Notes: generated by a model from the sequence alone, not told the origin. DNA of 64,000 nucleotides from an uncultured Pseudomonadota bacterium (GCA_900321105.1 OOHL01000003.1:17516-81515), one strand, 5' to 3'; shown: positions 1 to 58,582, numbered from the stretch's first letter. A program made the numbers and translations.

Positions 1-1249
1 GCGTGTCACCGCATGTACCGATGAATTCAAAGCCTGTATCCAAGACGATGAAAGATGCGGCGAAGATTATTCAAAATGTATTGGATTGGATGAAAATGAT
101 ATTGCTGAACTTTGTCCTGATGATAAATTAACAGCATGTTATCATGAATATGACGGTAAAAAAGAAACAGTACGTGAAACATTGGCAAATGTTGCGAACG
201 GCATAATGTTACAGATTCATTCTGGTTTGGCAGATGCGTGCGAGAACGCAGTCAAAGAAGCGATGATAAAAACATGTGGTAATGCCGAAAATTGTAATGA
301 TTTAATAGTCGGTGACAAGGTTGGATCAAGAAGTTTGGAATTAAAGTTCTGTGAAGTTAATGATGCAAATAATATGTATGCGAATTGCAAAACAGATATC
401 AAAGAAATTATGGATAAAGAATTGGGTAAAACAATTCGTAATGCCGATTTATCAAAAACTAAAAATGACAGACATATTTATACAGGTCTGATATTGGGCG
501 ACATATTATGGAATCAAATAACCCCGTTGCCAGATTATTCCGGTGTTATTTCTGGGGATGAATATATAGAAAAAGTGAAAGACATCGTTTATATGGATGA
601 TAAAACCAAAGACAAAGTTAAAACAGAAGTCGGAGCAATAACAAATATGATAAAAAGCACTATTGCCACCGTAGAGACGGATCCGCGTGTACAATTTTGT
701 ATGACTGGTCGTCAGGTCGCAGGTCTTACTGGCGATGGTGGTTTACAACAATATATTGGCAAAGAAAATAATGCAACCTTTCCAAATATTACACAAAGTG
801 CACGTGTCGCAATTGTTAATGGTGCATTACTTGCCGCACAAAAATATTACAATAACAAATATGATGAATTGATTCAGAAAGCAATTGATGCAAATGCACA
901 ACTTCGCGCGCGTTATGCAGAAATTGATGATGCTAATTTCCATCTTGATGTTCAAGACAGCGCCCGTCAAAAATGTATGGCATTGGGTGAACGCGCTGCA
1001 TTTTCTGACAAGGTCAGTGGTCGTGGCGCCAAAAATGAAATTGTCCGTTCAGGTGGCAAAGATGATAAGTTTGTCGGTTATTCCACAGAATCTACATATA
1101 ATTTCAAACGTCAAGTCACTACAACTTTCAGTATGGATAAAATGATTTGCACAAAATGTGTGCGAACCCAAGAATGCTTTATAACAAAAAGAGATTACTG
1201 TAAAGAATGGGATGAAGAAGAAGAAACCTGTGAAGAGATAAAATATTAA
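1..1249 (+). CDS. C-terminal part of a cysteine-rich secreted protein of the paralogous family; the 5' end lies upstream of the window
   Basis: The frame is open from position 2 with no stop before the listed 86 start. The translation ...ACTDEFKACIQDDERCGEDYSKCIGLDENDIAELCPDDKLTAC aligns with CTKEIKECMQSGDRCGSDYSQCIGLDTNIIMRMCPYDKLPGC of ORF 1252-4002 and the equivalent in ORF 19857-22355. It shares the QFCMTGRQVAG motif and a Cys-rich C-terminus ending CEEIKY. Confidence 0.75.
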   Translation, partial: RVTACTDEFKACIQDDERCGEDYSKCIGLDENDIAELCPDDKLTACYHEYDGKKETVRETLANVANGIMLQIHSGLADACENAVKEAMIKTCGNAENCNDLIVGDKVGSRSLELKFCEVNDANNMYANCKTDIKEIMDKELGKTIRNADLSKTKNDRHIYTGLILGDILWNQITPLPDYSGVISGDEYIEKVKDIVYMDDKTKDKVKTEVGAITNMIKSTIATVETDPRVQFCMTGRQVAGLTGDGGLQQYIGKENNATFPNITQSARVAIVNGALLAAQKYYNNKYDELIQKAIDANAQLRARYAEIDDANFHLDVQDSARQKCMALGERAAFSDKVSGRGAKNEIVRSGGKDDKFVGYSTESTYNFKRQVTTTFSMDKMICTKCVRTQECFITKRDYCKEWDEEEETCEEIKY

Positions 1250-1251
1250 AA

Positions 1252-4002
1252 ATGAAATTGTTTTTGAAAATCTTTATCGCGATTGTTTTGATGGGTAATG
1301 TTTATCCAGCGTTTTCTGCGCGTTCTACTGTTGCGAAACAAAGTGTTGTAAGTATGGGAACAAAAATAGAAGAATCGAAAGCAACACAATCTTCACCTTG
1401 TCAGGAAAAATATGATGCATGTATGGATGCCGGTTGTATTATTGATAATGACAGTGGTGGTCGTTGTCAATGCAGTAATCAAATCAAAGATTTAAATGCA
1501 CAATTAAAACAAATTGAAAAAGATTTTAAAAAGACTGTCGATTTATCTAATGATACACTGGACAGAATCAGTGCCGGTGATATGGTAAATGAAGCATTTG
1601 ATAAATCTGGATTCAATGATGATGACGAAGACGATGAAGATTTGGAAACAGCAAGTGATTCAATCGGTGATAAATTACGCAGTGAAATGCATCAAATATG
1701 TGCTGAAAAAATCCCAGAATGTAAATCGCAATTAACACTGATTAAAAATATGTATGCGCAAAAGGTTAAATCTGATTGTGCTGCATTTGAAAACGCATTA
1801 AAACAACGTGGACGTGAAGGTCGTGCAACGTTGGCAGCGGCGGAAAAAAATGTGCGTGATGCGGCGCTTGATAAATATCAAAATGATAATAAATATGATT
1901 TGGGTCAATGCACATTAGAATTCACAAAATGTATGCAAACAACCGCAGAATGTGGAAGTGATTTCACGGGTTGTGTTTCGACTGTCGGTAAAGAAAGTAT
2001 TTATGGCGGTGTCAAAAATACTGTCGCGATACAGGGGGAAAACTCTTCTATTATAATTGCAAAATCAACAATGGAGATGTTGGAATCTAAAAAAATAATC
2101 TGCGATTCTGTATTGAATAATTGTAAAAAAGTTAAAGATGATGTTTGGGATGCGTTCCTTAAAAACGCTGCACCACAAATTAAATTGGCAGAATCAAAAT
2201 CAGAATCAAATATTCGCACATCTTGTTTGAATAATATTTCGGATTGTTTTGTGAACGCGTGTAAAGATACAATTGACGGAAATGATTCTTATGATGCGTG
2301 TTTAAGTCGTCCGGAAATGGTAAAATCTTTCTGTCGTGTTGAATTGGAACCGTGTTTGGCCGCAACCGGTGGGACATACGATAATCCAGAAAGTTCGACT
2401 TTGTGGCCAAGTATATTGGCAAAATTATCTGCGATGCGTGTTGATTCTTGTACCAAAGAAATCAAAGAATGTATGCAAAGCGGTGACAGATGTGGTTCTG
2501 ATTATTCACAATGTATCGGATTGGATACAAATATAATTATGCGTATGTGTCCGTATGATAAATTACCCGGATGTCAAAAGGTTTATGGCAAAGAACGGGT
2601 GCAGGGTGATGATATTTATGACGAAGTCGCCCAGATTATCGAAGGCACAATATTGAATATTGATAATGAAATGTTGGCAACGTGTGAAACGGCTGTGGAT
2701 AACGCGATGTCAAAGGTTTGCGGTGATACAGAAAGTTGTGCGGCATATGCATTGGGAACAAAAATCGGTGCACAATCTTTGGAATATCGTGTATGTCAAT
2801 ATTCGACAGATTCCCCAGATTCAACCAAGGGATTCAAATGGTTTGATTGTCGTCCGGACATTGAAAGTATTTCAGATTATGAATTGGGACGTAATAAAAA
2901 TGCCACATCGGAAGAATTGGGTTATGTTGCGCCATTTGCCGGTGTTATAACTGGTGTTATTAAATGGGAAAGTGTTGAAATTACAGATGACGGTATGATT
3001 GATGTCGATGCATATGTCGCCGCATTGGATAATGAAAAAGACATTGATATTACCGACCGTGACAAAGAATTAGTTCGTGACGAATTAAATCAATTACAAA
3101 ACGATATCAATCGTGTTATTAAACAGGTAGAAAGCGATAACTTTGTTCAATATTGTATAACCGGACGTCAGGTTCAGGGTGTCACAGATATGTTCAAAGA
3201 TAACAAAGTCCGTTTTCCAAAATTATCAAACACAATACGTAAGAACATAGCCAATGCCGCCCTGCAACAGGCCAAAGATAATTATTATCGTAAATACGAT
3301 AAATTGGCGGAACAAATGCAAACCGATATGGCCGCTATAAATGTCAGATTACATGAAAATCTTAAACTTAATGGTGAAGATGCTAAAAGAATTGCTGCTA
3401 GGGCAGCATGTGTTAATATTGCTTCTATAGCTGTTTTTTCTAAAGCCCCCGTTGGTCAATCATTATGGGCAAAGATTGTTATTGGAATAATAGTTGTTGC
3501 GGCAATAGTTGTGGCAACAGTATTTACGGCCGGTGCAGCAACAGGTGCTATTGCTGGTATTGCTGCTTTTTCTACAACTACTACTCTTACAACTACTGTT
3601 ACAACTTCGTTAGGCGTAATGACGTTAACCGCAACAGTTCCAACGCTTACAGGGGTAGGCAGTGTTATCGTTGCTGCCACAGCTGGGGCTGCTGCTGTGG
3701 CTGGGGTTGCGGGGGCGGCCGCCACTGCTGCACAAGCAGCGGAAGCAGAAAGACAAAATGCTGCATTTATTGATTCGCAACAAAAAAAGCAAGCAGAAAC
3801 ACATGGTGAAAATTTCTTTAGAGAATGGAATTATATGGAAAAAATTACAACCGATTTCGATGATAAAACAATGGTTTGTAAAAAATGTATTTCAAAACGT
3901 TATTGTGAACAAACAAAATGGTCCTTGTTTACCGACAGAACATGCAAAAAATGGGAAACCGACGATTTTGTCGATGAACGTTGCACCGATGTTCAATTTT
4001 AA
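1252..4002 (+). CDS. Cysteine-rich secreted/surface protein, paralogous family member (916 aa)
   Basis: N-terminal signal peptide (MKLFLKIFIAIVLMGNVYPAFSA). Carries the conserved C..KYDACMD..C...GG.C.CS motif, an acidic patch (NDDDEDDEDLE) and the CxSDFxGC, VWDAFL, CLSRPEMVKSFC, DRCGSDYSQCIGLD and QYCITGRQVQG motifs. Has a 90-aa Gly/Ala/Thr/Val hydrophobic low-complexity segment and a C-terminal CKKC..C..C..C terminus. It starts 2 bp after the preceding paralog's stop. Confidence 0.8.
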   Translation: MKLFLKIFIAIVLMGNVYPAFSARSTVAKQSVVSMGTKIEESKATQSSPCQEKYDACMDAGCIIDNDSGGRCQCSNQIKDLNAQLKQIEKDFKKTVDLSNDTLDRISAGDMVNEAFDKSGFNDDDEDDEDLETASDSIGDKLRSEMHQICAEKIPECKSQLTLIKNMYAQKVKSDCAAFENALKQRGREGRATLAAAEKNVRDAALDKYQNDNKYDLGQCTLEFTKCMQTTAECGSDFTGCVSTVGKESIYGGVKNTVAIQGENSSIIIAKSTMEMLESKKIICDSVLNNCKKVKDDVWDAFLKNAAPQIKLAESKSESNIRTSCLNNISDCFVNACKDTIDGNDSYDACLSRPEMVKSFCRVELEPCLAATGGTYDNPESSTLWPSILAKLSAMRVDSCTKEIKECMQSGDRCGSDYSQCIGLDTNIIMRMCPYDKLPGCQKVYGKERVQGDDIYDEVAQIIEGTILNIDNEMLATCETAVDNAMSKVCGDTESCAAYALGTKIGAQSLEYRVCQYSTDSPDSTKGFKWFDCRPDIESISDYELGRNKNATSEELGYVAPFAGVITGVIKWESVEITDDGMIDVDAYVAALDNEKDIDITDRDKELVRDELNQLQNDINRVIKQVESDNFVQYCITGRQVQGVTDMFKDNKVRFPKLSNTIRKNIANAALQQAKDNYYRKYDKLAEQMQTDMAAINVRLHENLKLNGEDAKRIAARAACVNIASIAVFSKAPVGQSLWAKIVIGIIVVAAIVVATVFTAGAATGAIAGIAAFSTTTTLTTTVTTSLGVMTLTATVPTLTGVGSVIVAATAGAAAVAGVAGAAATAAQAAEAERQNAAFIDSQQKKQAETHGENFFREWNYMEKITTDFDDKTMVCKKCISKRYCEQTKWSLFTDRTCKKWETDDFVDERCTDVQF

Positions 4003-4971
4003 TTAATCTAATTCATCCAATGATTTGATTACACGAACACCCATGTTTTCAAATTTGTTAATGGTGTCTTCGATGTCCATGATGTTTTGTGATTGCAGAT
4101 AAAGGACCGGTATCAAACCATTTTGTTTGCCCAGGTCAATTAAATCGTTTATTGGTGAATCAATTTGTTTGCCAGCTGCAAACCATGTGTTATTATCCAT
4201 TACCCAGAAATCACCATCGTTATGTTCGTATATAACATATTTTTCAGTTGCCACAAATTCTTTATATGTTTCGAATTCTATGTTTTTTGATGCAAAATAT
4301 TTTGTGGTGTTGTTTTCCAATGGTTTTTCTTCGGGTTCGTCATCAAAATTTATGTCTGTGAATGTTGGAATTTTTATGTTTTCTGAATCGCTTTCATCCA
4401 AAGATTCCGATATATCAAAATCTGTCGGTATATTAAATGTGTTTTCTATATCGGTGTTTTCAGATTTATCATTTTTTTCTGTGGTTGGTTTTGTGTTTTG
4501 TTTGTTATATACAGAAACAACCCCCATTAACGACATATTATTTTTTGCGCGCATATATGGAACACGCAATTCGGGCGGCATATCAGACGGATATTCAGGT
4601 TGAAGTGGTTCTTCTGATTTTTCTTCAACGATTGGTTCGGTTGGTTTTTCCACTTCTTTTTTCTTTGGTAAATATTTTGATATGAATTCAACGATTTTAT
4701 CAACAAAAGGTATCGCAATTACCAATTCTTTTTTGCGATAAATTGTTGCGGTTGTCGCAATGTATATTGGAATTGCAGTATATATCAACAACCCAAACAC
4801 AAAGCCGCCAAAACCATGCAATGTAGAATGAAAAAATTTCCACCAATAATGTGCGTTGAACATATCGAATTTAAATACAAATCGCAATATTAACCACAAT
4901 ACAAAAAAATACCAGAATGTCCATTTGGCAATAATTATGTTTGATTTAATAAATTCAATAATCTTTTTCAT
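4003..4971 (-). CDS. Hypothetical membrane protein with 2-3 N-terminal TM helices and an acidic, low-complexity C-terminal half
   Basis: 322-aa ORF with strongly hydrophobic N-terminal segments (WTFWYFFVLWLILRFVF, GFGGFVFGLLIYTAIPIYIATTA) and a D/E/S/N-rich region. No recognisable catalytic motif. Confidence 0.5.
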   Translation of the reverse strand: MKKIIEFIKSNIIIAKWTFWYFFVLWLILRFVFKFDMFNAHYWWKFFHSTLHGFGGFVFGLLIYTAIPIYIATTATIYRKKELVIAIPFVDKIVEFISKYLPKKKEVEKPTEPIVEEKSEEPLQPEYPSDMPPELRVPYMRAKNNMSLMGVVSVYNKQNTKPTTEKNDKSENTDIENTFNIPTDFDISESLDESDSENIKIPTFTDINFDDEPEEKPLENNTTKYFASKNIEFETYKEFVATEKYVIYEHNDGDFWVMDNNTWFAAGKQIDSPINDLIDLGKQNGLIPVLYLQSQNIMDIEDTINKFENMGVRVIKSLDELD

Positions 4972-5106: not shown

Positions 5107-7254
5107 ATGAAAATGTTGAATTTATTTGGGAAATCAATGGTCAGTGTTGCTGTTTTGGCAACGTGTTGTGGCGCAAATGCTGCACAAAACGGTCGTGTCA
5201 GTATGATGCCGGCGGTTGATTCTGCATCAAGTGCACGTATGCCAACAATGCCGGTTGTATCTTTGAACACTATCGGAAATCCGGCGGTTCAAACAATAAG
5301 CCAACCGGTCGAGGCTACATATAATCACGAAGTTATGCCAACACCTCCGACACCACCAACCCCGGACCCAAAACCAATATCTGAATGTCCAGATGGTGGC
5401 GTGAAAAATTCAACATATACTATTTCCATGTGTATGAATGACGTCTTGCAATGCGTTAATACCGGCGCACTTCAAGGTGGTTTGAACGATTTGTTCAACG
5501 AAGATGTGCGTAATTCAATTATGGGTGGCATGAAATTATGTCAGGCTTCGGTTGATAAATGTATTTCCGACGTTCGTGTAAACTGCCGTAATGTTTATGC
5601 TGAAAGCAACGATGTGTGGCTTGATTTCAATTCCAGAATTGTTCAACCAGAATATTATAACTTTGTTTTACGTAAAACAGGTTTGACACCAAATCAGGCT
5701 GAAAATACATGCTTGTTATTGGATCGCAATACATATGGTTCATCGTTCTCTGCGGTGTCTGATACAAATGTTGTAAATACTGAATATAACAACAAGGTCG
5801 GTGCATATAACGAAGCTAACGGTGGAATTCTTTCCAAAGATAATCCACAAGGTGTCGCGGTTAATACTGTTGGATACGATGGAAATCGTGGCCATTATGC
5901 ACGTTGGGATGCGGCAAAGGCTGAATGTTTGATTCGTGTTGCGGCATATAACAAAGATAAATTGATTACAAACAGTTGGTTGTTCGGTGCCGTTGGTAAT
6001 GATAACCCGGCAGAAGTTTGGGAAAAAGCAGGTTCAACATTTACATGCAGCAAAGAATTGTTTGATTTCGATTCATTGTTGAATGATACAAAGACCGCTG
6101 CTGTTATCGCGGTTCCAGGTGGTGCTGTGTTGGGTACTGCAATTGGTGCAGCCGCCGGGGCAGGTGCTTATAAAAAGAAAGCTGCTGCTGCCGAAGAATT
6201 ATTAGATTCTTCTTATGAAGATCCTTGTACGGCTGGTGATGATCAGGGCAAACGGTATCGTCAAATATTGGGTTCAGCCATCAGGGGCAAAGAGTATTCG
6301 TTACAGGGATATCTTTGTGAAAATGTGAAGGCTAACGAAGAAAAACAAAATGTTGAATGTAAAAGTTATGATACAATCGATTCATATAATATAAGCGTAA
6401 AGCAATGTAAAGACATACATAATTTGTTTGCCAAGGCTGAATTATACAGAGCGGCGCATAAGGCATGTCAGGACAGGGTATCACCAGAAATGATTTCGCG
6501 TGTGGTTGGCAATGTTTGTGTCGAAGGTGAATATTCTTGTAAAGATGCCAGTGGTAACATCATTACAGCTGAAAATATGAAAAACAACCAGAGCTATGAT
6601 TTATATCAACAATACATAGAATATAAAAACAATTGTTCATTTAAACCGTTGTTAATGTTATTTTCGTTACAAGACCAAGATCCTTTGTGCAAAACAAACA
6701 AAGACTGTGTCTCTTATGAATACAGCAAGAAAGAATTGGTAGAATTAGACAATTTCCTGGCTGGTATAGAAAGCGTTGTTGATAAAAACGCCTTGAAAGT
6801 TGCAAAACAAATCAAAGAAAATGAAAAGTTAAGCAAAGGCAAAGAAATCGGCAAGGGTGCAGCGATTGGTTTGGCAACTGGTGCCGCCGCCGGTGGTGTT
6901 GCAACAGCAATCACAGCATTTGTAGAACGCAGCAACATTACATGTAAAGTTGGTGATGGTCTGAATTCTGTTGCATTGGGCAAGGCGCACACTATCGATT
7001 CCTTGAAAGATTTCTATGTGAAATGGAATCTGCATTTGCCAGATACAGTATCGCCAACATCTGCAGTTTCTACAAAGGCAGATTGGGAACAAGCATGCAG
7101 CCAATTCAATAACAAATTGACAGATTGTCCAAAGGTTCAAATTAACCTGAAAGACACAAATGGTAAATATACATTGGTACCATCTGCATGTAAAGTTTCT
7201 GGAAATGTTTGTATCGTAAATGATTCAGTTATGACATCAAACGGTATACAATAA
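5107..7254 (+). CDS. Secreted cysteine-rich protein of a distinct type from the main family, with a Pro/Thr linker and two Gly/Ala zipper segments
   Basis: Signal peptide (MKMLNLFGKSMVSVAVLATCCGANA). Has a PTPPTPPTPDPKP linker and about 30 Cys. Two hydrophobic G/A-rich segments are present (TAAVIAVPGGAVLGTAIGAAAGAGA and GAAIGLATGAAAGGVATAITAFV). A hairpin terminator follows. Confidence 0.7.
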   Translation: MKMLNLFGKSMVSVAVLATCCGANAAQNGRVSMMPAVDSASSARMPTMPVVSLNTIGNPAVQTISQPVEATYNHEVMPTPPTPPTPDPKPISECPDGGVKNSTYTISMCMNDVLQCVNTGALQGGLNDLFNEDVRNSIMGGMKLCQASVDKCISDVRVNCRNVYAESNDVWLDFNSRIVQPEYYNFVLRKTGLTPNQAENTCLLLDRNTYGSSFSAVSDTNVVNTEYNNKVGAYNEANGGILSKDNPQGVAVNTVGYDGNRGHYARWDAAKAECLIRVAAYNKDKLITNSWLFGAVGNDNPAEVWEKAGSTFTCSKELFDFDSLLNDTKTAAVIAVPGGAVLGTAIGAAAGAGAYKKKAAAAEELLDSSYEDPCTAGDDQGKRYRQILGSAIRGKEYSLQGYLCENVKANEEKQNVECKSYDTIDSYNISVKQCKDIHNLFAKAELYRAAHKACQDRVSPEMISRVVGNVCVEGEYSCKDASGNIITAENMKNNQSYDLYQQYIEYKNNCSFKPLLMLFSLQDQDPLCKTNKDCVSYEYSKKELVELDNFLAGIESVVDKNALKVAKQIKENEKLSKGKEIGKGAAIGLATGAAAGGVATAITAFVERSNITCKVGDGLNSVALGKAHTIDSLKDFYVKWNLHLPDTVSPTSAVSTKADWEQACSQFNNKLTDCPKVQINLKDTNGKYTLVPSACKVSGNVCIVNDSVMTSNGIQ

Positions 7255-14871: not shown

Positions 14872-14906
14872 AAAAAAAACGATAAAATATTTATCGTTTT
14901 TTTTTA
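14872..14906. terminator. Bidirectional hairpin terminator between clpX (+) and ORF 14904-17222 (-)
   Basis: The hairpin aacgataaaatatttatcgtt is flanked by an A-run and a T-run. Confidence 0.65.
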
Positions 14907-17222
14907 TGGTTTACAATATCCCCATAATGCACTGGAACCTGTTTTAATGTAAAAGCTGTTCAATAAATAATCACCAGTAGAATCATGAATACCATCACTG
15001 TTTTTATCTGTCCATGGAATATCAACCCATGTCCCAGATTGGTCAGAACATTCTTGTGATAAAGACAAAACCAGTTGTGTGCGAACCTTTTGCATAACTT
15101 TATCAATATCAGATAACAAAGATTCTGATACTGTATAACTTGTCTTTGACGGTCGACGACAATTCTGAAGCGCATATCTTACAAGTTGTTGATACAAAGA
15201 ACCAATGTAAGACGTCCCACATGTCATATATATATCAGAAGATGATTGCACGGGGGCTAGTTTGCCGCCATAACAAGTATAAGTTTTTGGACATTGTTTG
15301 CATTCCGTTGCACCAGTTGTTGCAAAATAAACTCCTGTGTTGTCTTCATCTGTTTCATCAAACTTATACAAATAATATCCAGGTTTACATTCCTTATATA
15401 TTTTTGTATATCCTATGGAACAATAATCTTGATATGCTGCATGTGAATACGTAGATGTTTGTGCAGTGGTTGTAATCAAAATATCGTTTTGGGAAAAAGG
15501 GTTATATGATGTTTCATTGCATATTTCAACACGTGCATATCGCGATTCCCCTGGAGCATATTTGCGACAACCATAAGGATAAGAATGTGCTGAATCACCA
15601 GTCTGGATAGCACATCTGCTTTCTACAAATGTTGTTAATAAATCATAACACGATTGTTCGATTGTCGCATCTGTGATGCCTGTCATTGCAGCAACTAATG
15701 TTGTAAGACCTTCTTCGCCACCACCATATAAATTACTGCAAGTATTTAATTTATCAGCACACATTTCTTCGGATAATTCCAATGTTTGTCCCAAGTTAAT
15801 TTTTGTATCTGTATCTGAAAAATTTTTTAATTGGTCTGATTGTTTCAGATAACATTCGTTAACAACTTTCAAACATTCATCTTTGACTGTTTTTACTCGT
15901 GCTTGTTGTCCTTGGTATATTTCGACAATTGCTTGTCGTAAGAATTCGTCCCATACATCTTCGGCATCATCACGACATAAATCCAGACTTTTTGATGCAA
16001 AATTACGTTTTTTGTTAAGCATACTTATAAATGATGTGTTTTGGCTGTTTTTTAAAACATCACCTGATAACGATAATTGGTTTTCAATCTGATAAAATTC
16101 AGGCGAATATATTGGTTGTCCAGTTGATATATTCAAATATTTACCAGAAAAATCTAAACAGTGAATATATCCATTTCCACAGGCTGAATCTGCCGTTATA
16201 TCTTTACGAACATTTGCAATACAATCATTTATGCTGGACGAATTGTGTGCATTATAATTTTCGAGACGCGCATCTTGCATTTTATGACGTGTTGATCGTA
16301 TTGATGCATTTGCATTGGTGGTTTTTGTTTGCAGATTATTTTCAAGTAAAGAGCAATCATTTTCAACGTACATGCCGTATGCAGATGCAACCATTTTCAA
16401 ATCAGATGATGCACAAGTTTCTGTGACAAGTTCTGAACATTGGGCATGTACCGCATTGAATAAAGCTTCGCCGGTAAGATTTGCAATGTCTGCACCGCCA
16501 ATCAAATTTGTTGTTGACCAAATAGATTTTATATCACCAGCAATGTCTACATTTCCCTTGGTCGATAGCGATTGAGATTTTGTATTACTAAGCACACCAG
16601 AAATATTTTTCAATGTATTTGCGCTTTCAGACGTATCCTTTTTGATCGCAGATTCACCATCTGTAGCGGATAACATCGCTTTTACTTCTTTGGATGTTTT
16701 TGATATCATGTCGATATTTAAATCTTGAAAGTCTTGTAAACTTTCTGCGGTTTGTGATAAAAGCCTTTCTTTGTTTTGTATATCTTTTAATTTTGAAGAA
16801 CAAACACATCGACGGTACGTTTCGTTTTGCGTAGCGCAAAATTGATCCATACATGTAAAATATGCATCGCGACAAGAATTATAATTTGATCCGAAAGTTC
16901 TTGTTTTTACAGTAGCGGCAGCGCGCGCCAATCTTGAAGCTTGTGTTGCAACCGCAGAACGAACAGCTTGGTGATTTTGTGTCGCACTTCGCCCGGTGAC
17001 AATCTTTGTATTTGGTGTACGTGCGGTTGTCTTTCTGGTGGTGACATCTGCAGATGCGTTACGCGATGTTATAGAACGGCTTGTATTGGTATCTGTTTTT
17101 TGTCGTGTTGATGACGATAGGCGTGATGTTGTTGGTGTTGCAGTATTCTGGGTACGCAAAGCAGCATTGACCCCGTCAACGCATAAAAACAGACCAAGCA
17201 AAACAACAAAAACCTTTCTCAT
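14904..17222 (-). CDS. Cysteine-rich secreted protein, divergent member of the paralogous family (772 aa)
   Basis: Signal peptide MRKVFVVLLGLFLCVDGVNA. Has a Thr/Ser/Arg-rich linker. SCRDAYFTCMDQFC......RRCVCSS matches the family N-terminal motif and CRDDAEDVWDEFLRQA matches the VWDxFL motif. About 35 Cys. The C-terminus differs from the other members. Confidence 0.75.
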   Translation of the reverse strand: MRKVFVVLLGLFLCVDGVNAALRTQNTATPTTSRLSSSTRQKTDTNTSRSITSRNASADVTTRKTTARTPNTKIVTGRSATQNHQAVRSAVATQASRLARAAATVKTRTFGSNYNSCRDAYFTCMDQFCATQNETYRRCVCSSKLKDIQNKERLLSQTAESLQDFQDLNIDMISKTSKEVKAMLSATDGESAIKKDTSESANTLKNISGVLSNTKSQSLSTKGNVDIAGDIKSIWSTTNLIGGADIANLTGEALFNAVHAQCSELVTETCASSDLKMVASAYGMYVENDCSLLENNLQTKTTNANASIRSTRHKMQDARLENYNAHNSSSINDCIANVRKDITADSACGNGYIHCLDFSGKYLNISTGQPIYSPEFYQIENQLSLSGDVLKNSQNTSFISMLNKKRNFASKSLDLCRDDAEDVWDEFLRQAIVEIYQGQQARVKTVKDECLKVVNECYLKQSDQLKNFSDTDTKINLGQTLELSEEMCADKLNTCSNLYGGGEEGLTTLVAAMTGITDATIEQSCYDLLTTFVESRCAIQTGDSAHSYPYGCRKYAPGESRYARVEICNETSYNPFSQNDILITTTAQTSTYSHAAYQDYCSIGYTKIYKECKPGYYLYKFDETDEDNTGVYFATTGATECKQCPKTYTCYGGKLAPVQSSSDIYMTCGTSYIGSLYQQLVRYALQNCRRPSKTSYTVSESLLSDIDKVMQKVRTQLVLSLSQECSDQSGTWVDIPWTDKNSDGIHDSTGDYLLNSFYIKTGSSALWGYCKP

Positions 17223-17705: not shown

Positions 17706-19838
17706 ATGAAAATATTGAGATTTTTACCAATTTTGTTGGTTTTGCCATCTGTCGTGTATGGGGCTTCACGTGGGGATTCAGAGATGCGTGTTGGTATAGT
17801 GCGTGGATCTCAGGCTGCTTCGCGCATATCTGTCGGGGCCGCGGAAGTAAAAGCTGTACGTGAGTCTGCAGAGAAAATACTGCAATCAAATGAAAAAGAT
17901 GGTTCTAAAAAATTACCATCTATTTCAGGATATGCGACCGAAAGTCCTGCGAGTGATTGTCGTGATGCGTATCGTGAATGTATGGATAATTTTTGTTTGT
18001 TGGACGAAAGCCAGGGTGAACGTTGTGCGTGTTCTGATAATATAGAACGTGCAAAAAGCAAAATTCAGGCTGTTCTTGATATCCAGGCAGAAGCAGACAA
18101 ATTGTATACCGAGGGTGTTGAACGTGAACAACTGGGTGCCAAGGCGCGTTTAGTTTTTGCTGATAACACCAGTACCAAGGTTTCAACTGCGAATTTCATG
18201 GCATGGTTGGGCGCCGGAGAAGAAGATGAAGAAGAAGAAGTTGGCGAAGATGTGACGATGGGTGATGATTTGTACCAAATGGCTGTTAAGTATTGTCAGG
18301 CTGAATTAGATGCTTGTGGCAGTAAGGCCGAAATGGAATCCATGCTTTATACGCGCATGATAACCCAAGATTGTAAAAATTATGATGCATATCTGGCAGA
18401 CCAGAAAGCAAATGCGGAATCCAATAAACGTATCGCAGAATCTGCGGTTCGCAAGGCACGTCTTGAAATGTTAGACACGACAAATAAATATAACCGTGGT
18501 GAATGTTTGTTGGCATATCGTTCATGTATCGCAGACAAGGGTGGTTGTGGTTCTAATTTTGAAAACTGTTTAGATGAAAAATTATTACAACGTCGTTCAA
18601 ATGCCTGTGAAAACGTGTTGGATCAATGTATGGCGGTTCGTGATTATGTTGTTAAAGATTGGGCGGCAGAATCTAAAAGTGTTTTGGCAGAAGCAGCAAA
18701 ATATGCGGATAAATATGAACGTGCAACATGTTTGGCAAAGGTGCAACTTTGTTTGGAAGAAGGGTGTTCAACATCAACAAATGCGGAATGTTTAACAGAT
18801 GTAAATGTCGCTGCTGGTGTATGTCCAATTATTACAGAATGTGACGCAAAGATACCAGGCTTCCAGGCTGTTGTAAACGATAAGTTGGGATATTTGCAAA
18901 CAAAGTTCTGTGAAAATGATGTTGATAAATGTCTGCAAGATAAGTGTGGTGTTGATTTTACGAAACCAGAATGTGTTGGTAAAAAACCGTATGAAATCGC
19001 GGCGCTTTGTCCACAGAGTATGTTCCCTTCTTGTAAGACTGCAACACAATTTGATGTGATTGTTCAGGCTGCAATCTTGCAAATGGATTATCAAATGATG
19101 CAGGGCTGTGTGAATTATTTTGGTGAACAACTGGGCAAGGTTTGTGGTACAGATATGGCGTGTTTACCAATTGATACAACTGTTGAATCTTTAATCAATT
19201 TGCCTGATACCGAAGAAGGTTTGGCAGATTTACGTAAAACGGTTGTTGCAAATTCTGATGCATCGGTCGAAGAATTCTTTAAACAATTTGAACAAGATAA
19301 AACTGTGGCTGCTTGTTCGGATTCTCAAAGTGTTGACGCGTCAAAGAAAGTAAAGGGTAAAAACACATTGGGGGTAAGTGTATTTAATACTGCAAAATTA
19401 TTGGCGAAAATGGCAGCAGAAAATCGTAATTTACGCGAACTTGATTCTAAAATTGCAGAATTGGCACGTAAAAAAGAATTAAAAGAAGCAGAACAAATTT
19501 GTTTGAAAACTTATAAACCTGAAAAACCAGATGATTCTAAAACGAATTACAGTTATATAAAAAGTGTTTCGTTTGAACCACAACTTCGTAATTGTCATGT
19601 TTGCAGATTGCAACAGGTGTGCGAAGAAGGTGGCGAATCAAAAGCATCTGCGGCATTGAAAGCTGCGGCTGGTGGTTTGTCGGCTGGCGCATCGACTGGA
19701 ACAATGATAAATGCCGGATGGGGAACCGCAATTGGTGGTATTATAGGTGCGGTTGGTGCCGGTGCATTAGGTGCGGCATCTGGTGGTAAAAAAGAATTCT
19801 GTCAAGAAATCGAATCTTGCGAAGATATAAATATGTAA
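17706..19838 (+). CDS. Cysteine-rich secreted/surface protein, paralogous family member (about 710 aa)
   Basis: Signal peptide [19 protein letters not shown]. Carries the [14 protein letters not shown]......GERCACSD motif and the acidic patch [12 protein letters not shown]. Also [20 protein letters not shown], a G/A-rich hydrophobic segment [40 protein letters not shown], and a terminus NCHVC...CEDINM. Confidence 0.8.
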
Positions 19839-19856: not shown

Positions 19857-22355
19857 ATGAAAAAAGTATTGCATTTTGGGTTGGTTTTTGGATTGTTTGC
19901 GGCTTTTGTTGGTGCGACAGATTCTTTCGCTGCGACAAAAAAAAGTTCGTCAAAAAAACAATCTGCGATTCAAGTTGGAACCAAGGTTCGTGCCAAAGTC
20001 GAAGCGACAGGAATTTATGACGAAGAATGTTATAATAAATATTTTGGTTGTATGGATCAATTCTGTATCGCAGATAATGAAAACGGCGGAACATGTATGT
20101 GCAGTGATGATGCCGCAAAATACGATGAACAGCTGGAATCAATCAAAAAAACTTTAGCAGAAGCAGAACGTATAGGTACCGAAGAAGTTGAAAGAATTCA
20201 AGCTGGTGCAAATGCAGACATCATATTCAATGGTGGTGAACGTATTTATAACGATGATGGTTCTATTGTAAAGGCTGGTGAAAAGAAGAAAGATACAATT
20301 ACATGGTCTTCTATATACGATATGGAAGATGATGAAGAATATGATGACGAATGGGCAGATATTGATTTGTCTGACAAAGTCGGCAGGGAATTATACACAT
20401 CTGCACATCAATTATGCCGTGAACAAATGCCAGATTCTTGCAACAAAGATATGACGCTTTTGACGCAAATGTATTCGCGTCAAATCATTTCTGATTGCAA
20501 GGGGTTGGCAAATTCTATTGCACAAAAGAAACAGGAAGCAGATTCTATGTTAGCAAAAGCAAGAGCTGCGGTTCGTGGTGCATTAAAGGAAAGTTTCGAA
20601 GAATCTAATAAATATGATCGTGGAACATGTATGGTTGAATATAAACATTGTATGCAAAGTGCAGATGCTTGCGGTTCTGATTGGAGTAATTGTGTATTTA
20701 CAATAGCATCCGAGAATATGCAAAACAATGAGGCAACCAGTGTTGCTGGAACAAAAGTTAGTACAGTTAACATATATGATATTACAGCATCCACAATGGA
20801 AATATTAGAATCAAAACGTTTTATCTGTGAAAAAGTTTTAGACAGTTGTGTCGCGGTTCGTGACTATGTCTGGAACGATTTCTTGCGTGAAGCAGCACCA
20901 ACAATACGATTGGCAGAACAAAATGTAGAATCACAAAAACGTCAATCTTGTTTGTCTGATATTTCGAATTGTATCCAAAAGGCATGTAAAGATGATATAG
21001 CAGGTAAGGGCGTTGACACAATGGATGCGTGCCTTGCACGTCCAAGTATGGCACGTTCATTCTGCAAGATTCAAATTGAACCATGCGAAAGAATGGAACC
21101 ACAAATTTGGGATTATGTGGTAAGTAAATTGGCGGCAATGCGCGTTGATGCATGTACCGCGGAAGTAAAAGAATGTTTTACATCCGAAGACAGATGTGGC
21201 AAAGATTTTTCAAATTGTATTGGTATGGATTTCAATTATATACACGATATCTGTCCAATTGATAAATTGGTTGTATGTAAACAAGCAAACCCAGATTTCA
21301 AAATGTCAGATTTGGATTCTATGTTGATGGGATTATATTTGAACATAGATAACAAGGCTTTGGAAAATTGTCAAAATCTGGCTGAACAAAAAATGACAGA
21401 ATTATGTGGTTCGACAACTGATTGTAATTCGTTTGCCGCCGATGAATTTATCGGGACCAGTTCCGTTAAATCACAAAAAGACGGAACGACATATCGTGTG
21501 ACCGGTATGATATCTTTCGGTTCAATTAAAATGGGTGATGCCACAGGTTCTGTAACAGATGGTGGACGCGTTTTGGCACCTGGTGAAATCGGGGTCGCTG
21601 ATTATATCAAATCGGTAAAAGCTAAAAATGTAAATGTTCCAAATGCCGAAGCAATAATCACATCTATCGAAGAAGAATTGAATAATATTGCCGGTACAAT
21701 TAACAGGACTGTATCTTTCTTGGAATCAGATCAACAAATATCTTATTGTATCAATGGGCGTGATTTATCACAAATAAACGGCAAGGGTTCAGAAAATAAC
21801 GCAACGGTTGCGCGTTTCCCTAATTTATTGAATCAATATCGTGTTATGATTGGTATGGCCGCTTTACGTAAAGCACAAGACAATTATAATAAAAAAGTTA
21901 ATGATGCGATTGCTGATGCAACCAAAAATGCATCCGCAGACGTTGCACAATATATGTGTCAAAAAATTGCAGATTCCAGAACATCACGCAGTTCGGGAAA
22001 TGAAATTGTTGAACAGACACCTTTGACAACGCCGTTCTCTATATCATACGAAGTGGGGGCTGGTTTGAATACGGCGACATTATTAAAGGGTGGGTCTGGC
22101 ACATCAAATAACACAATGGCTGGTAAATTTAAAAACAGTGGTTATCTGGGCGGTTCATCAGCATCTGGTTTAGGTGGTGTTATGAAAGATGTGACGGCAA
22201 CATTTGATCGTGAATCAAGAAATTGTCATGTTTGCACAACATTAACCACACAATCTTGTAAAACAACGGGGTCAACATCTTGGTTCCATAACAGCAGAAA
22301 CCAATCTTGTGAGACTAAGACGGCAGACCCGTATTGTGAAGATATCAAAATGTAA
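19857..22355 (+). CDS. Cysteine-rich secreted/surface protein, paralogous family member (832 aa, about 36 Cys)
   Basis: Signal peptide ending in the typical motif ECYNKYFGCMDQFC......GGTCMCSD. Acidic patch DMEDDEEYDDEWADIDLSD. Has the CGSDWSNC, VRDYVWNDFL, CLARPSMARSFC, DRCGKDFSNCIGMD, ICPIDKL and SYCINGRDLSQ motifs. Terminus NCHVC...SCK...SCE...YCEDIKM. Confidence 0.85.
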   Translation: MKKVLHFGLVFGLFAAFVGATDSFAATKKSSSKKQSAIQVGTKVRAKVEATGIYDEECYNKYFGCMDQFCIADNENGGTCMCSDDAAKYDEQLESIKKTLAEAERIGTEEVERIQAGANADIIFNGGERIYNDDGSIVKAGEKKKDTITWSSIYDMEDDEEYDDEWADIDLSDKVGRELYTSAHQLCREQMPDSCNKDMTLLTQMYSRQIISDCKGLANSIAQKKQEADSMLAKARAAVRGALKESFEESNKYDRGTCMVEYKHCMQSADACGSDWSNCVFTIASENMQNNEATSVAGTKVSTVNIYDITASTMEILESKRFICEKVLDSCVAVRDYVWNDFLREAAPTIRLAEQNVESQKRQSCLSDISNCIQKACKDDIAGKGVDTMDACLARPSMARSFCKIQIEPCERMEPQIWDYVVSKLAAMRVDACTAEVKECFTSEDRCGKDFSNCIGMDFNYIHDICPIDKLVVCKQANPDFKMSDLDSMLMGLYLNIDNKALENCQNLAEQKMTELCGSTTDCNSFAADEFIGTSSVKSQKDGTTYRVTGMISFGSIKMGDATGSVTDGGRVLAPGEIGVADYIKSVKAKNVNVPNAEAIITSIEEELNNIAGTINRTVSFLESDQQISYCINGRDLSQINGKGSENNATVARFPNLLNQYRVMIGMAALRKAQDNYNKKVNDAIADATKNASADVAQYMCQKIADSRTSRSSGNEIVEQTPLTTPFSISYEVGAGLNTATLLKGGSGTSNNTMAGKFKNSGYLGGSSASGLGGVMKDVTATFDRESRNCHVCTTLTTQSCKTTGSTSWFHNSRNQSCETKTADPYCEDIKM

Positions 22356-38763: not shown

Positions 38764-39309
38764 TTATCTCTCTCTCATAAAACGAGAGTATTTTGATAAT
38801 ATTTTATCTGGTGTCAATGTGGAATCCTGCTTCGTTAATTTATTTTCAATAAAATCTTTACTTATGCAAAAAAGACGTTCGCCATATAACCCAAGATCAA
38901 ATATCAAATTATAGTATTTTAATTTAGGAATTTTCACCTGTACATATGAAGTGCTTTTTTCTTCAGGAAGGAATTCTCTACAAGATATCACGATAGGTCC
39001 AACCGAAGATTTTTTAATATAATAAAAATACTCTCCGTTATGAAAAGATTCACTTTTATAACAGGCCACAGAAGCAATAAGTTTTTCTTCGCCTAATTTT
39101 TGTAACAATTCAACAAATTTTTTATAATCTGCATACTGTTTGTTGTTTGCTTGTAAAGCCAAGTCGTTTTCCAAACGACGAAAGAACCTTTCGTGCATTT
39201 TTGTCGTTTTGCTATTTAATAAGGTCATTTTGTTTCCTTTTTTGGTTTTGATTATGAATATTATTGTACGTTTTTTTTGTTTGTCAAGCATTTTGTTCGA
39301 AAATGACAA
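38764..39309 (-). CDS. Hypothetical protein (about 150-180 aa) next to the tRNA-Gln att-repeat region
   Basis: ORF only. The true start is probably the internal Met (MTLLNS...). No recognisable motif. Confidence 0.35.
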   Translation of the reverse strand: MSFSNKMLDKQKKRTIIFIIKTKKGNKMTLLNSKTTKMHERFFRRLENDLALQANNKQYADYKKFVELLQKLGEEKLIASVACYKSESFHNGEYFYYIKKSSVGPIVISCREFLPEEKSTSYVQVKIPKLKYYNLIFDLGLYGERLFCISKDFIENKLTKQDSTLTPDKILSKYSRFMRER

Positions 39310-39958: not shown

Positions 39959-40101
39959 ATATTGTCCCAGCAATTATATATAATATATTTTATTTTTCAA
40001 ATAAATAATTTTCATAATATGATTTTATTCATATATAAAAAACTTGCTTAAAATTTTTTAATGTTCTAGGCTTTATGTATGAAAGAAAAAGGAGAGCTCT
40101 C

Positions 40102-43575: not shown

Positions 43576-43606
43576 GAAAACGGTCGCAATCGCGACCGTT
43601 TTTTAT
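43576..43606. terminator. Bidirectional terminator between the autotransporter (+) and ORF 43603-45063 (-)
   Basis: aaaacggtcgcaatcgcgaccgtttttt forms a hairpin with a T-run. Confidence 0.7.
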
Positions 43607-58493: not shown

Positions 58494-58582
58494 GTCACCA
58501 GTGTAGCGATTTATAAATAAAAATGCAATTTTTATATTTATATAATCTTTTTTTTGTGATATAATATAAGCCAAAGAGAGAG

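Follow-up and report, generated by a model that had tools for sequence, protein, structure and literature searches.

A charge-free, hypervariable segment as the probable membrane-anchoring loop of a cysteine-rich protein from gut Alphaproteobacteria

A cysteine-rich protein of an uncultured Pseudomonadota bacterium contains a run of 89 residues that carries no charge. We favour, with modest confidence, the reading that this segment is a membrane-anchoring hydrophobic loop or hairpin in a secreted, Cys-rich, helical protein, with both of its flanks extracytoplasmic. The gene lies at positions 1252..4002 (+) of a 64,000-nt stretch of DNA (GCA_900321105.1 OOHL01000003.1:17516-81515), which we call the window. 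An ORF scan and translation give a product of 916 aa. The low-complexity peptide that the initial annotation quoted from this protein is found in the translation exactly as claimed.

According to the ORF, its translation and its homologs, 1252-4002 encodes a secreted or membrane protein with 38 conserved Cys. It starts with a signal peptide, MKLFLKIFIAIVLMGNVYPAFSA (1252..1320, +), read from the sequence, where the N-terminal hydrophobic peak reaches KD 1.92. The signal peptide looks like an SPase I type, and no lipobox Cys was seen when MKLFLKIFIAIVLMGNVYPAFSA was read. It is kept in the ortholog P0001; for the homologs P0388 and P0389 some gene callers place the start at Met14. The ectodomain that follows (1321..3435, +) is mostly alpha-helical and has 33 conserved Cys, identified as invariant alignment columns; many of them are spaced i,i+7. 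The AF2 model of the protein has a mean pLDDT of 72.5 and long helices in the ectodomain. Immediately before the segment is a conserved juxtamembrane motif, FSKAPVGQSLWAK (3436..3474, +), which forms a net-positive N-flank (K+R 1.9 vs D+E 0.4 per 12 aa) and whose DNA is almost invariant across five lineages. On the other side, the C-flank and a linker helix, EAERQNAAFIDSQQKKQAETHG (3742..3801, +; AF2 helix 822-844), are net-acidic (K+R 1.3 vs D+E 2.55). The protein ends with a beta domain (3802..3999, +) of five strands (AF2 strands 851-915, pLDDT 78-94) that includes a CxxC motif, five invariant Cys (C876, C879, C885, C898 and C911) and the terminal residues CTDVQF. In 75 of the 114 full-length homologs every one of the 38 Cys is conserved, with 33 before, 0 within and 5 after the hydrophobic module. 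The adjacent gene 4003-4971 (-) encodes a Cys-free protein of 322 aa with a hydrophobic N-terminal region. It was considered as an explanation of export, but Pfam and PDB searches with it returned no match and were uninformative.

The charge-free run comprises aa 742-830 (nt 3475-3741), including 26 Ala, 19 Thr, 14 Val, 10 Gly and 8 Ile. Given that D, E, K and R make up 29% of the remainder of the protein, 89 uncharged residues in a row have a probability of ~6e-14. The Shannon entropy of the run is 2.79 bits vs 3.92 +/- 0.14 bits for 15,395 89-aa windows from 46 large ORFs of the window. It is both the entropy minimum and the G/A/T/V maximum (0.78) among these ORFs, so the earlier description of a hydrophobic low-complexity G/A/T/V segment was correct. 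Of 121 aligned sequences (the query and 120 homologs), 102 have an uncharged stretch of 40 aa or more, and the longest uncharged run elsewhere in these proteins has 25 aa, vs 89. The pooled charge-free runs consist of Ala (30%), Gly (16%), Val (12%), Thr (11%), Ile (9%), Ser (7%) and Leu (5.5%), with zero D/E/K/R. Over as much as 149 aa, D/E/K/R are excluded fully and N/Q/P nearly so.

The segment opens with a strong, conserved transmembrane helix, TM1 (IVIGIIVVAAIVVATVFTAGA, aa 742-762, 3475..3537, +), supported by hydropathy, insertion energy and conservation. At aa 742-760 its KD is 2.94 and its summed Hessa dGapp is -3.0, which means favourable insertion. The proposal of a membrane-type hydrophobic element is thereby confirmed for one strong helix; every hydrophobic window after TM1 has a positive summed dGapp. 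TM1 identity is 65-91% in most orthologs (58-91% for the ectodomain). A glycine zipper, G761-x3-G765-x3-G769 (3532..3558, +), is visible in the translation as a continuation of TM1, i.e., a GxxxG or small-xxx-small ladder is present on a hydrophobic helix, and the pattern VFT[AC]GA..G recurs among orthologs. The suggested glycine zipper is thus real as a motif directly after the TM helix, but it does not extend to known families: the isolated modules of 1252-4002, 17706-19838 and 5107-7254 had no Pfam glycine-zipper match at E <= 10, and the whole proteins had no hit to PF05433, PF13488, PF13441 or PF13436 at E <= 1. At the strain level, five TM1 variants spread over ~21 nt match lineage L002. 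They may represent a recombination import from L002, which is suggestive only; part of the 44-nt exact match is conserved in all lineages.

Beyond TM1 the run continues as a hypervariable low-complexity arm (aa 763-830, 3538..3741, +), likewise free of charges and delineated by alignment, composition, insertion energy and the AF2 model. It includes a Thr-rich stretch (aa 773-800, 3568..3651, +) and a putative return arm rich in Ala, Gly and Val (aa 801-829, 3652..3738, +). Arm identity is 6-33% in all orthologs except P0001 from the same cluster (87%), compared with 58-91% for the ectodomain, and the length of the arm after TM1 ranges from 8 to 121 aa across orthologs. At 80-90% identity in the remainder of the protein, the arm reaches 10-30%. 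A comparison of segment lengths, as the initial annotation had proposed, was rewarding: the spacing between the conserved anchors flanking the segment varies from 44 to 200 aa across relatives, and a near-identical strain has a 4-aa deletion within the segment. The arm keeps its composition, but neither its sequence nor its length. A compact module of ~40-45 aa with conserved length and sequence is not what the 1252-4002 orthogroup contains. We attribute the extreme variability of the arm to a constraint on composition only, which would leave room for free drift, slippage and possibly recombination. The earlier remark that such repeats are recombinogenic did not hold, since repeats themselves were not found: TRF detected no more than two 12-nt units, each in 2.2 copies, in 3300-3900, and no long or flanking direct repeats were found in this region. 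A frameshift origin of the variability was ruled out, as a product of the other frames would be rich in Cys, Tyr, Asn, Gly, Ser and Arg and would differ greatly in composition from the segment.

The relatives of 1252-4002 in the window help to place the C-terminal domain. At least five family copies are present, all inside the first ~22 kb. The gene 17706..19838 (+) is a true paralog (hhalign probability 99.9%), and its Gly-rich module (aa 646-691, nt 19641-19778) lies between Cys3 and Cys4 of the C-terminal domain. The same location of a hydrophobic module inside the tail domain is observed in P0229, P0264, P0226 and P0230. This module is compact, of the ~40-45-aa kind. Across 120 orthologs its sequence is conserved and its length does not change: the tail measures 89 aa at every length percentile up to the 75th and 90 aa at the 95th. 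The AF2 model places a helical module between strands 629-641 and 697-709, with pLDDT 84 in the last block. Other paralogs have no hydrophobic module. The tandem paralog 86..1249 (+), cut by the window start (BLASTP E 1e-39; its full-length ortholog in L080 has 848 aa), has the same Cys-rich tail. So does 19857..22355 (+), which is 33% identical (BLASTP E 2e-119); in it a polar Gly/Ser/Thr linker replaces the module, and no KD peak beyond the signal peptide was found. A more distant paralog, 14904..17222 (-), encodes 772 aa with 30 Cys and is also devoid of the module (BLASTP E 4e-21). The same Cys tail without the module, together with a signal peptide or an ectodomain, occurs in P0051, P0067, P0119, P0125, P0128 and P0131.

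Of the two genes previously named as paralogs with shorter counterparts of the segment, only 17706-19838 is one. The other, 5107..7254 (+), was rejected as a paralog (hhalign probability 0.3%): it belongs to a separate Cys-rich family without detectable homology and has two conserved ~24-aa Gly-zipper-like segments of fixed length in its orthologs (aa 328-355, nt 6088-6171, and aa 583-607, nt 6853-6927, both +). Its ortholog P0454 is the sole one with a precomputed PF13441 hit. Nor are the counterparts equivalent, as the modules of both genes are fixed and conserved, in contrast to the hypervariable segment of 1252-4002.

We propose the following topology. The N-terminal signal peptide would direct the 730-aa ectodomain across the inner membrane, and TM1 with its GxxxGxxxG extension would then stop transfer and enter the bilayer. 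The charge-free Ala/Gly/Thr/Val arm would turn round, with aa ~801-829, where its hydrophobicity is highest, as the return arm, so that the ectodomain would share the extracytoplasmic side with the acidic linker and the beta domain of five Cys. The protein would then be held by a helical hairpin or a re-entrant loop, and not by a simple single pass through the membrane. TM1 alone would be constrained in sequence; elsewhere any uncharged residue that is small or hydrophobic would do.

Several observations are consistent with this arrangement. In the module-less paralogs 86-1249 and 19857-22355 and the six homologs listed above, which carry the same tail, that tail must be extracytoplasmic. The numbers of Cys before and after the module, 33 and 5, are both odd; therefore, full pairing requires a disulfide across the module, an argument that presumes disulfides, while Rs-D84, the order to which the family's hosts appear to belong, reportedly has no respiratory chains (PMC12306168). 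In sequence, the short orthologs P0014, P0021 and P0027 look like clean hairpins, with a VP-AP-or-WTNTFH turn between two helices. Of 59 best second hydrophobic windows, 34 lie at the C-terminal end of the arm, vs ~20% expected. Acidic residues (D or E) supply the first charge after the module in 67 of 94 homologs (71%), and such an acidic flank, unlike the K/R-rich cytoplasmic flank expected of a stop-transfer helix, favours the hairpin, as does the predicted insertion of a module between tail Cys3 and Cys4 in 17706-19838 and others. The weak i,i+4 periodicity of small residues (z 5.7), with no lag-2 signal, points the same way. The hairpin is weakened by the marginal hydrophobicity of the return arm: in 19-aa windows the summed dGapp of the arm of our protein is +2.7 to +6, values at which a translocon may fail to insert it. 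K and R are also missing from the putative cytoplasmic loop, an unusual trait in an inner-membrane hairpin. The AF2 model speaks against it as well, with pLDDT <50 over aa 762-821 and TM1 drawn as short strands.

A simple single-pass (type I) anchor, in which TM1 alone spans the inner membrane and the arm and the 5-Cys tail are cytoplasmic, the tail perhaps binding metal via CxxC, is a serious but unlikely alternative. It agrees with the favourable insertion energy found in TM1 only, with the CxxC itself and with the distant members P0249, P0259, P0248, P0256 and P0234, in which a low-complexity arm and a strong TM are followed by a short K/R-initiated tail at the end of the protein. Judged from their sequences, these members look single-pass, and topology within the family may differ. 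For 1252-4002 the same reading meets several difficulties. Instead of a positive cytoplasmic flank, TM1 is followed by 68 aa without charge and then by an acidic flank. Paralogs and homologs that bear a signal peptide but no TM at all have the same tail, the 33 | 5 Cys parity speaks against it, short orthologs have two clear hydrophobic helices, and a charge-free Ala/Gly/Val/Ile stretch of 60-150 aa is unlike a soluble cytoplasmic linker. Resemblance to type I stop-transfer anchors is partial: what they share is a signal peptide ahead of a large exported domain, and a single helix of strong hydrophobicity close to the C-terminus, but here 60-130 more uncharged residues replace the basic flank, and a conserved Cys-rich domain follows, which the module-less paralogs place outside the cytoplasm.

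It is quite improbable, in our estimate, that the module stays shielded or soluble during export and inserts afterwards as a hairpin from the aqueous side, either into the cell's own outer membrane, like the glycine-zipper lipoproteins SlyB and YfgH, or into the membrane of a partner cell, like the hairpins of colicins or alpha-pore-forming toxins. Zero charges are what an unaided bilayer crossing needs, module-less paralogs are presumably soluble, and an outer membrane is indicated by genes in the window (an autotransporter, LptC, an LptB-like protein and OmpA). Rs-D84 bacteria are predicted to be partner-dependent (PMC12306168), and outer-membrane glycine-zipper transmembrane domains have precedent (bioRxiv 10.64898/2025.12.22.696046). 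On the other hand, judging by translocon behaviour, TM1 (dGapp about -3) is expected to stop transfer through Sec and to stay in the inner membrane, the lipobox is absent, and no likeness to toxins or glycine-zipper families was found (Foldseek best E 1.1, SmhB E 5.3, no Pfam match). We give little credence to the extension of this idea, in which a self-inserting charge-free hairpin would plant the disulfide-stapled helical family in the outer or partner-cell membrane as part of a contact or uptake apparatus of the transporter-poor, partner-dependent Rs-D84 bacteria, instead of being a passive anchor. If it were true, the hypervariable arm and the strain-level mosaic would reflect diversifying pressure at the partner interface.

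That the segment is not embedded in a membrane at all, but serves as an envelope spacer, flexible or self-associating in the manner of silk, elastin or amyloid, or as a Thr-rich glycosylated stalk, we regard as highly improbable. AF2 confidence is low here, the Thr-rich tract is present, V, I and T, which favour beta strands, are abundant, and hypervariable length is typical of spacers. Still, the first 20-30 residues, about a third of the segment, form a conserved classic TM helix, and charged residues are excluded over far too long a distance for this reading. Tandem repeats and i,i+2 periodicity were both absent from the segment, and lag-2 (beta) autocorrelation was not positive in 86 low-complexity arms, and the suggestion of an amyloid or silk-like element finds no support. 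In the same arms small residues have an i,i+4 autocorrelation of +0.064 (z 5.7 vs shuffles), a weak signal whose z is inflated by relatedness.

The local rise in GC content is a by-product of the amino acids used. The region 3430-3775 had been described as a GC-rich island of >60% GC. Its GC is 48% vs 37.4% in the window and 36.9% in the remainder of the gene; the figure is right only for ~86 nt (3660..3745, +; 67%), the sole such stretch, which encodes AAATAGAAAVAGVAGAAATAAQAA. There GC1, GC2 and GC3 are 0.86, 0.76 and 0.41, and the observed GC is 67.8% vs 65.6 +/- 2.8% expected from amino acids and codon usage. In the whole segment GC1 and GC2 are 0.61 and 0.66, and GC3 is 0.258 vs 0.262 in the remainder of the gene. 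When the amino acids are kept and their codons are re-drawn according to the usage of this gene, 53.2 +/- 1.6% GC is predicted vs 50.9% observed. An island beyond amino-acid composition thus does not exist. Despite a local peak of 0.53 in 200-nt windows against a background of ~0.35, a horizontally acquired GC-rich insert is almost certainly the wrong explanation and was rejected on GC3, the more so as amino acids and the gene's own codon usage predict the GC, the segment is in frame and recurs in most aligned sequences, and flanking repeats were not found.

The GCN, GGN, ACN and GTN codons are responsible both for the GC rise and for two overlapping ORFs, which had been reported as spurious antisense ORFs. 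Both exist, and both are spurious because they lie inside a gene with >1,200 homologs and have low-complexity translations, but only one is antisense. The ORF 3456..3725 (-), an 89-aa A/V/T/P-rich mirror of the segment, stays open because the GC-rich low-complexity DNA has no stop codons. The ORF 3465..3773 (+) is on the sense strand in another frame (1252 mod 3 = 1, 3465 mod 3 = 0), and its 102-aa translation, rich in Cys, Tyr, Asn, Gly, Ser and Arg, looks non-protein-like.

Known systems provide partial parallels for the hairpin that we favour. Glycine-zipper 2TM outer-membrane lipoproteins (SlyB, YfgH, YiaD, Pcp and the Rickettsia 17-kDa antigen) have an uncharged Gly/Ala-rich hydrophobic hairpin with GxxxG motifs, which anchors a periplasm-facing domain with both ends on the same membrane side, as proposed for 1252-4002. 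The closest to them are the modules of 17706-19838 and 5107-7254, with fixed lengths of ~24-45 aa and conserved GxxxG ladders. In contrast, the 1252-4002 segment has an Ile/Val-rich TM start, one GxxxGxxxG and a hypervariable arm of 8-121 aa, there is neither a lipobox nor an HMM match, and the carrier is a 900-aa Cys-rich helical protein instead of a small lipoprotein. The hairpins of pore-forming colicins, ClyA-family toxins and tripartite alpha-pore-forming toxins are charge-free over 35-50+ residues, rich in Ala, Gly, Val, Ile and Leu, and form a loop in a polar, largely helical protein. Our segment would likewise be a charge-free loop within a polar helical protein with both ends on one membrane side. 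It differs from them by hypervariable length (up to 149 aa), a TM1 hydrophobic enough for Sec capture and no sequence or fold likeness (best Foldseek E 1.1, SmhB E 5.3); no hit to Pfam Colicin or HBL was found with 1252-4002. The family is not known to be toxic. Chlamydial OmcB and OmcA and Giardia VSPs are Cys-rich surface or envelope families of host-dependent microbes. By analogy, the present family is multi-paralog, lineage-restricted, Cys-rich and exported, in an organism predicted to depend on a partner, and some members would be anchored by a C-terminal hydrophobic element. Its fold is long-helical with i,i+7 Cys, unlike OmcB/OmcA and VSPs, and general Pfam, NCBIfam and PDB searches detected no homology to them.

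More than 1,231 homologs of 1252-4002 were found, all named "hypothetical". A search of 1.84 billion proteins gave 954 representatives at the 50% identity level, and 449 stretches in GTDB species genomes were confirmed by tblastn. Among the matches listed (79 loci) nearly all are titled Alphaproteobacteria, proteobacterium or Ca. Enterousia MAGs. The family appears to be found only in MAGs of gut Alphaproteobacteria (Candidatus Enterousia, order Rs-D84), for which related genomes of <1 Mb are reported. The protein had no Pfam or NCBIfam hit above cutoff and no PDB sequence or fold match; a PDB profile search returned keratin only (E 0.15). No paper linking Rs-D84 with cysteine-rich proteins was found in the literature, and papers on Enterousia cover metabolism only.

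As a membrane anchor with the GC content that its amino acids dictate, the GC-rich low-complexity stretch is thus largely explained. The remaining interest is in its carrier, a large unannotated family with 38 invariant Cys and no Pfam or PDB relatives found, encoded by gut Alphaproteobacteria with reduced genomes that are thought to live off other cells and that lack standard transporters (PMC12306168). If the hairpin topology is true, the return arm would be a natural example of low sequence information, one that preserves its composition but neither a particular sequence nor a set length. The family has acquired hydrophobic loops at two distinct positions, and members with and without loops coexist. 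From the sequences, the presence or absence of a loop has the look of a natural means of switching between an anchored and a released protein.

The 89-residue charge-free run (aa 742-830, nt 3475-3741) lies in an intact open reading frame of 916 aa on the plus strand (1252-4002), which contains the peptide quoted in the initial annotation. Its main constituents are A26, T19, V14, G10 and I8. Given a D/E/K/R content of 29% across the remaining protein, 89 consecutive uncharged residues have a probability of ~6e-14. Among 15,395 windows of 89 aa from 46 large ORFs of the window, the segment has the lowest entropy (2.79 bits vs 3.92 ± 0.14) and the highest G/A/T/V share (0.78 vs 0.28 ± 0.08).

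The encoding DNA had been described as a GC-rich island of more than 60% GC. GC content does rise locally, to 48% in 3430-3775 compared with 37.4% in the window and 36.9% in the rest of the gene, but it exceeds 60% only in 3660-3745 (67%). The rise is confined to codon positions 1 and 2 (0.61/0.66 inside the segment vs 0.46/0.375 outside), while GC3 is 0.258 vs 0.262 elsewhere in the gene. When codons for the same amino acids were redrawn from the gene's own usage, the simulated GC content was 53.2 ± 1.6%, compared with 50.9% observed. Thus the segment DNA is not a compositional island, and a foreign or specially evolving stretch is ruled out by the unchanged GC3 and by the codon simulation. 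Both overlapping ORFs reported as antisense exist, but only 3456-3725 is antisense; 3465-3773 reads the sense strand in a different frame. They have low-complexity translations and lie within a strongly conserved gene. TRF and repeat searches found no genuine tandem repeats in the segment DNA, contrary to the idea that it is a recombinogenic repeat.

Hydropathy scans reveal a single unambiguous transmembrane helix, IVIGIIVVAAIVVATVFTA (TM1, aa 742-760; KD 2.94, summed Hessa dGapp -3.0), which is directly continued by G761-x3-G765-x3-G769. The low-complexity arm that follows is only marginally hydrophobic: its 19-residue windows score +2.7 to +6, with aa 804-822 as the best of them. In a comparison of 120 homologs, conservation of TM1 and of the FSKAPVGQSLWAK motif ahead of it is similar to that of the Cys-rich ectodomain (65-91% identity in most orthologs), while arm identity is 6-33%, including in orthologs with an ectodomain identity of 80-90%. 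The anticipated variation in length was found across relatives, with 44 to 200 aa separating the conserved anchors ARxACVN and THGE. The arm nevertheless keeps its composition (A30, G16, V12, T11, I9, S7 and L5.5%), lacking D/E/K/R entirely and N/Q/P almost entirely. The charge-free run has a median length of 60 aa and reaches 149 aa at most; elsewhere in these proteins such runs do not exceed 25 aa. A weak i,i+4 periodicity of small residues (z 5.7 vs shuffles), in the absence of any lag-2 signal, is consistent with helices and not strands. The segment joins a classic Ile/Val-rich transmembrane helix to a free-running arm devoid of charge. Ahead of TM1, the PVGQSLWAK codons (27 nt, 3448-3474) are near-invariant, including silent sites, at the orthologous loci L001, L002, L003 and L080; the flanks of these lineages are just ~73-79% identical.

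Variation between strains was assessed in one pair, the window gene and its homolog P0389 at locus L080; for TM1 and the arm, the stretches compared are window 3472-3660 and L080 5182-5360. The 726 codons (2,178 nt) of the ectodomain contain 16 nucleotide differences (13 synonymous and two non-synonymous codons) and no indel. The 23 codons (69 nt) of TM1 contain 14 (six synonymous and five non-synonymous codons), also with no indel, and the 68 codons of the arm contain 12 (three synonymous and seven non-synonymous codons) together with a 12-nt deletion. Synonymous changes too are clustered in TM1. Five TM1 variants are shared with lineage L002, whose flank is just 73% identical; a 44-nt exact match to L002 is partly a stretch conserved in all lineages. 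In this single strain pair, the pattern points either to recombination over a short tract or to a local hotspot together with weakened constraint.

We lean towards a membrane hairpin anchor with both ends of the module on one extracytoplasmic side, a reading that several independent lines of evidence favour and to which we give somewhat better than even chances. A polar linker replaces the module in 86-1249, 19857-22355, P0051, P0067, P0119, P0125, P0128 and P0131, which keep the ectodomain and the C-terminal Cys tail; the tail of these module-less proteins is exported, which favours a same-side hairpin. In 75 of 114 full-length homologs the 38 conserved cysteines are split 33/0/5 around the module. 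Since 33 and 5 are odd, one disulfide must span the module, provided that all cysteines are disulfide-bonded, which presumes a disulfide-forming system in the host. A charge-free run of at least 30 aa occurs in 37 of 146 family representatives (about a quarter), a few of these runs being polar. Hydrophobic modules occupy two sites, either ahead of the tail domain, as in 1252-4002, or between tail Cys3 and Cys4, as in 17706-19838, P0229, P0264, P0226 and P0230. The AF2 model of 17706-19838 places a helical low-confidence module (residues 646-691) between strands 629-641 (with Cys630, 633 and 639) and 697-709 (with Cys699 and 705; pLDDT 84). These strands probably pair, so that the module would be an excursion from a beta hairpin. 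The shortest orthologs of 1252-4002 can be read as two helices joined by a tight turn (VP, AP or WTNTFH), and in 34 of 59 cases the strongest second hydrophobic window closes the arm on its C-terminal side. Several points speak against the hairpin: the return arm of the 1252-4002 protein is weakly hydrophobic, K/R are absent from the presumed cytoplasmic loop, the parity argument depends on disulfide formation, and some distant members have a single-pass look.

A single-pass anchor, with the tail in the cytoplasm, appears unlikely. The distant members P0249, P0259, P0248, P0256 and P0234, in which K/R directly follow the last helix and the Cys motif is degenerate, do have a genuinely single-pass appearance. 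However, acidic residues outweigh basic ones in the flank after the module (K+R 1.3 vs D+E 2.55 per 12 aa), with D or E as the first charged residue in 67 of 94 homologs; this is unlike the cytoplasmic side of a stop-transfer helix and counts in favour of the hairpin. There are hints that topology varies between subfamilies. The same five distant members and P0229 have a reversed module, in which a long Ala/Gly/Thr arm precedes a strong transmembrane helix opening with a conserved P-[VI]-[VA]-G-W; members whose tail starts with K/R have a degenerate terminal Cys motif, and those with an acidic tail keep C-x5-6-C-x-D-I-Q-M. We consider it quite improbable that the hairpin inserts only after translocation, and a spacer outside the membrane more improbable still.

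The shorter counterparts described in 17706-19838 and 5107-7254 turned out not to be equivalent to the 1252-4002 segment, since in their orthologs length is fixed and sequence conserved. Among 120 orthologs of 17706-19838, the Gly-rich module hardly varies in sequence, and the tail measures 89 aa from the 0th to the 75th length percentile and 90 at the 95th. Orthologs of 5107-7254 have two conserved segments of ~24 aa and constant length. Both genes had also been called paralogs of 1252-4002: this holds for 17706-19838 (plus strand, hhalign probability 99.9%) but not for 5107-7254, whose relation is undetectable (0.3%). Their modules look like true glycine zippers. No module matched the Pfam glycine-zipper models, even at E ≤ 10; in precomputed annotation a single 5107-7254 ortholog carries a PF13441 match. 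The 5107-7254 protein belongs to a separate unannotated Cys-rich secreted family (at least 754 homologs). Lysines flank both of its glycine-zipper-like segments, around which the conserved cysteines are split 9/6/5. Its N-terminus (...VLATCCGANA) is a candidate lipobox whose two cysteines are conserved in just 17-30% of orthologs. The start of 17706-19838 in the initial annotation agrees with the 100% identical P0267 (710 aa, ATG 17706); a mechanical ORF begins at GTG 17700.

The 1252-4002 protein consists of a signal peptide lacking a lipobox, an ectodomain of ~710 aa with 33 conserved cysteines, many spaced i,i+7, the hydrophobic module, an acidic linker and a C-terminal domain of 65 aa with five invariant cysteines ending in CTDVQF. 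The public cluster mate P0388 differs from it only in the called start. Gene callers dispute this start (1252-1293): P0388 and P0389 are called from Met14, a choice that would cost the signal peptide, and the longer start yields a canonical signal peptide conserved in P0001. The AF2 model (110-sequence alignment, mean pLDDT 72.5) has long helices and a confident five-strand C-terminal sheet (pLDDT 78-94), with residues 762-821 below 50. The protein matched nothing in Pfam, NCBIfam or PDB sequences, and a Foldseek search of PDB folds gave no match (best E 1.1). All 38 cysteines (codons within 1399-3987) are conserved across ~110 homologs. Exactly seven residues separate 12 of the 37 successive pairs, e.g., C220, C227, C234, C241 and C400, C407, C414, C421. 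The resulting i,i+7 "cysteine ladder", lined up along one face of long predicted helices, is unusual; it is also present in paralogs 17706-19838 and 19857-22355 and has no counterpart in Pfam or PDB.

The family is of considerable size yet taxonomically narrow. It numbers over 1,231 homologs; a set of 1.84 billion proteins contains 954 of its representatives at the 50% identity level, and 449 stretches were confirmed in the genomes of GTDB species. By title, almost every one of the 79 listed loci is from uncultured gut or rumen Alphaproteobacteria, proteobacteria or Candidatus Enterousia; two are labelled Bacteroides or Muribaculaceae. At least five Cys-rich members lie within 22 kb (86-22355), with two tandem pairs separated by 2 and 18 nt. 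Besides 1252-4002 and 17706-19838 these are 86-1249 (plus strand, cut by the window start), 14904-17222 (minus strand) and 19857-22355 (plus strand, 33% identical to 1252-4002). At L080 the tandem array reaches further upstream (genes of 953 and 848 aa). The conserved neighbour at 4003-4971 (minus strand), adjacent in L080 too, encodes 322 aa with no cysteine, a hydrophobic N-terminal region with possible membrane helices and an acidic low-complexity middle; Pfam and PDB gave no match. The window also encodes markers of an outer membrane and of LPS, namely an autotransporter of 1,160 aa (40075-43557, beta domain E 5e-33), LptC with an LptB-like ABC ATPase (57286-58574) and an OmpA-family protein (59475-60863); the organism is therefore diderm. 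ORFs without Pfam matches in 34933-39309 and 43603-45063, one of 655 aa with 18 cysteines (35841-37808), may be additional lineage-specific envelope proteins.

The nearest described analogues of the segment are the charge-free helical hairpins of colicins and alpha-pore-forming toxins and, in outer-membrane lipoproteins such as SlyB and YfgH, the glycine-zipper 2TM domains. The segment falls outside both groups, having no HMM match, lipobox, fold similarity or fixed length. As initially described it is mostly explained, and on balance it seems to work like a hydrophobic hairpin anchor. Rs-D84 bacteria are reported to have genomes below 1 Mb, no respiration, few transporters and a predicted dependence on partner cells (PMC12306168). 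At least five family copies in 22 kb are a heavy investment for a lineage with such genomes. The family is more interesting than the segment: it is unannotated, multi-copy, rich in i,i+7 cysteines and lineage-restricted, and it occurs in a symbiont with predicted partner dependence.
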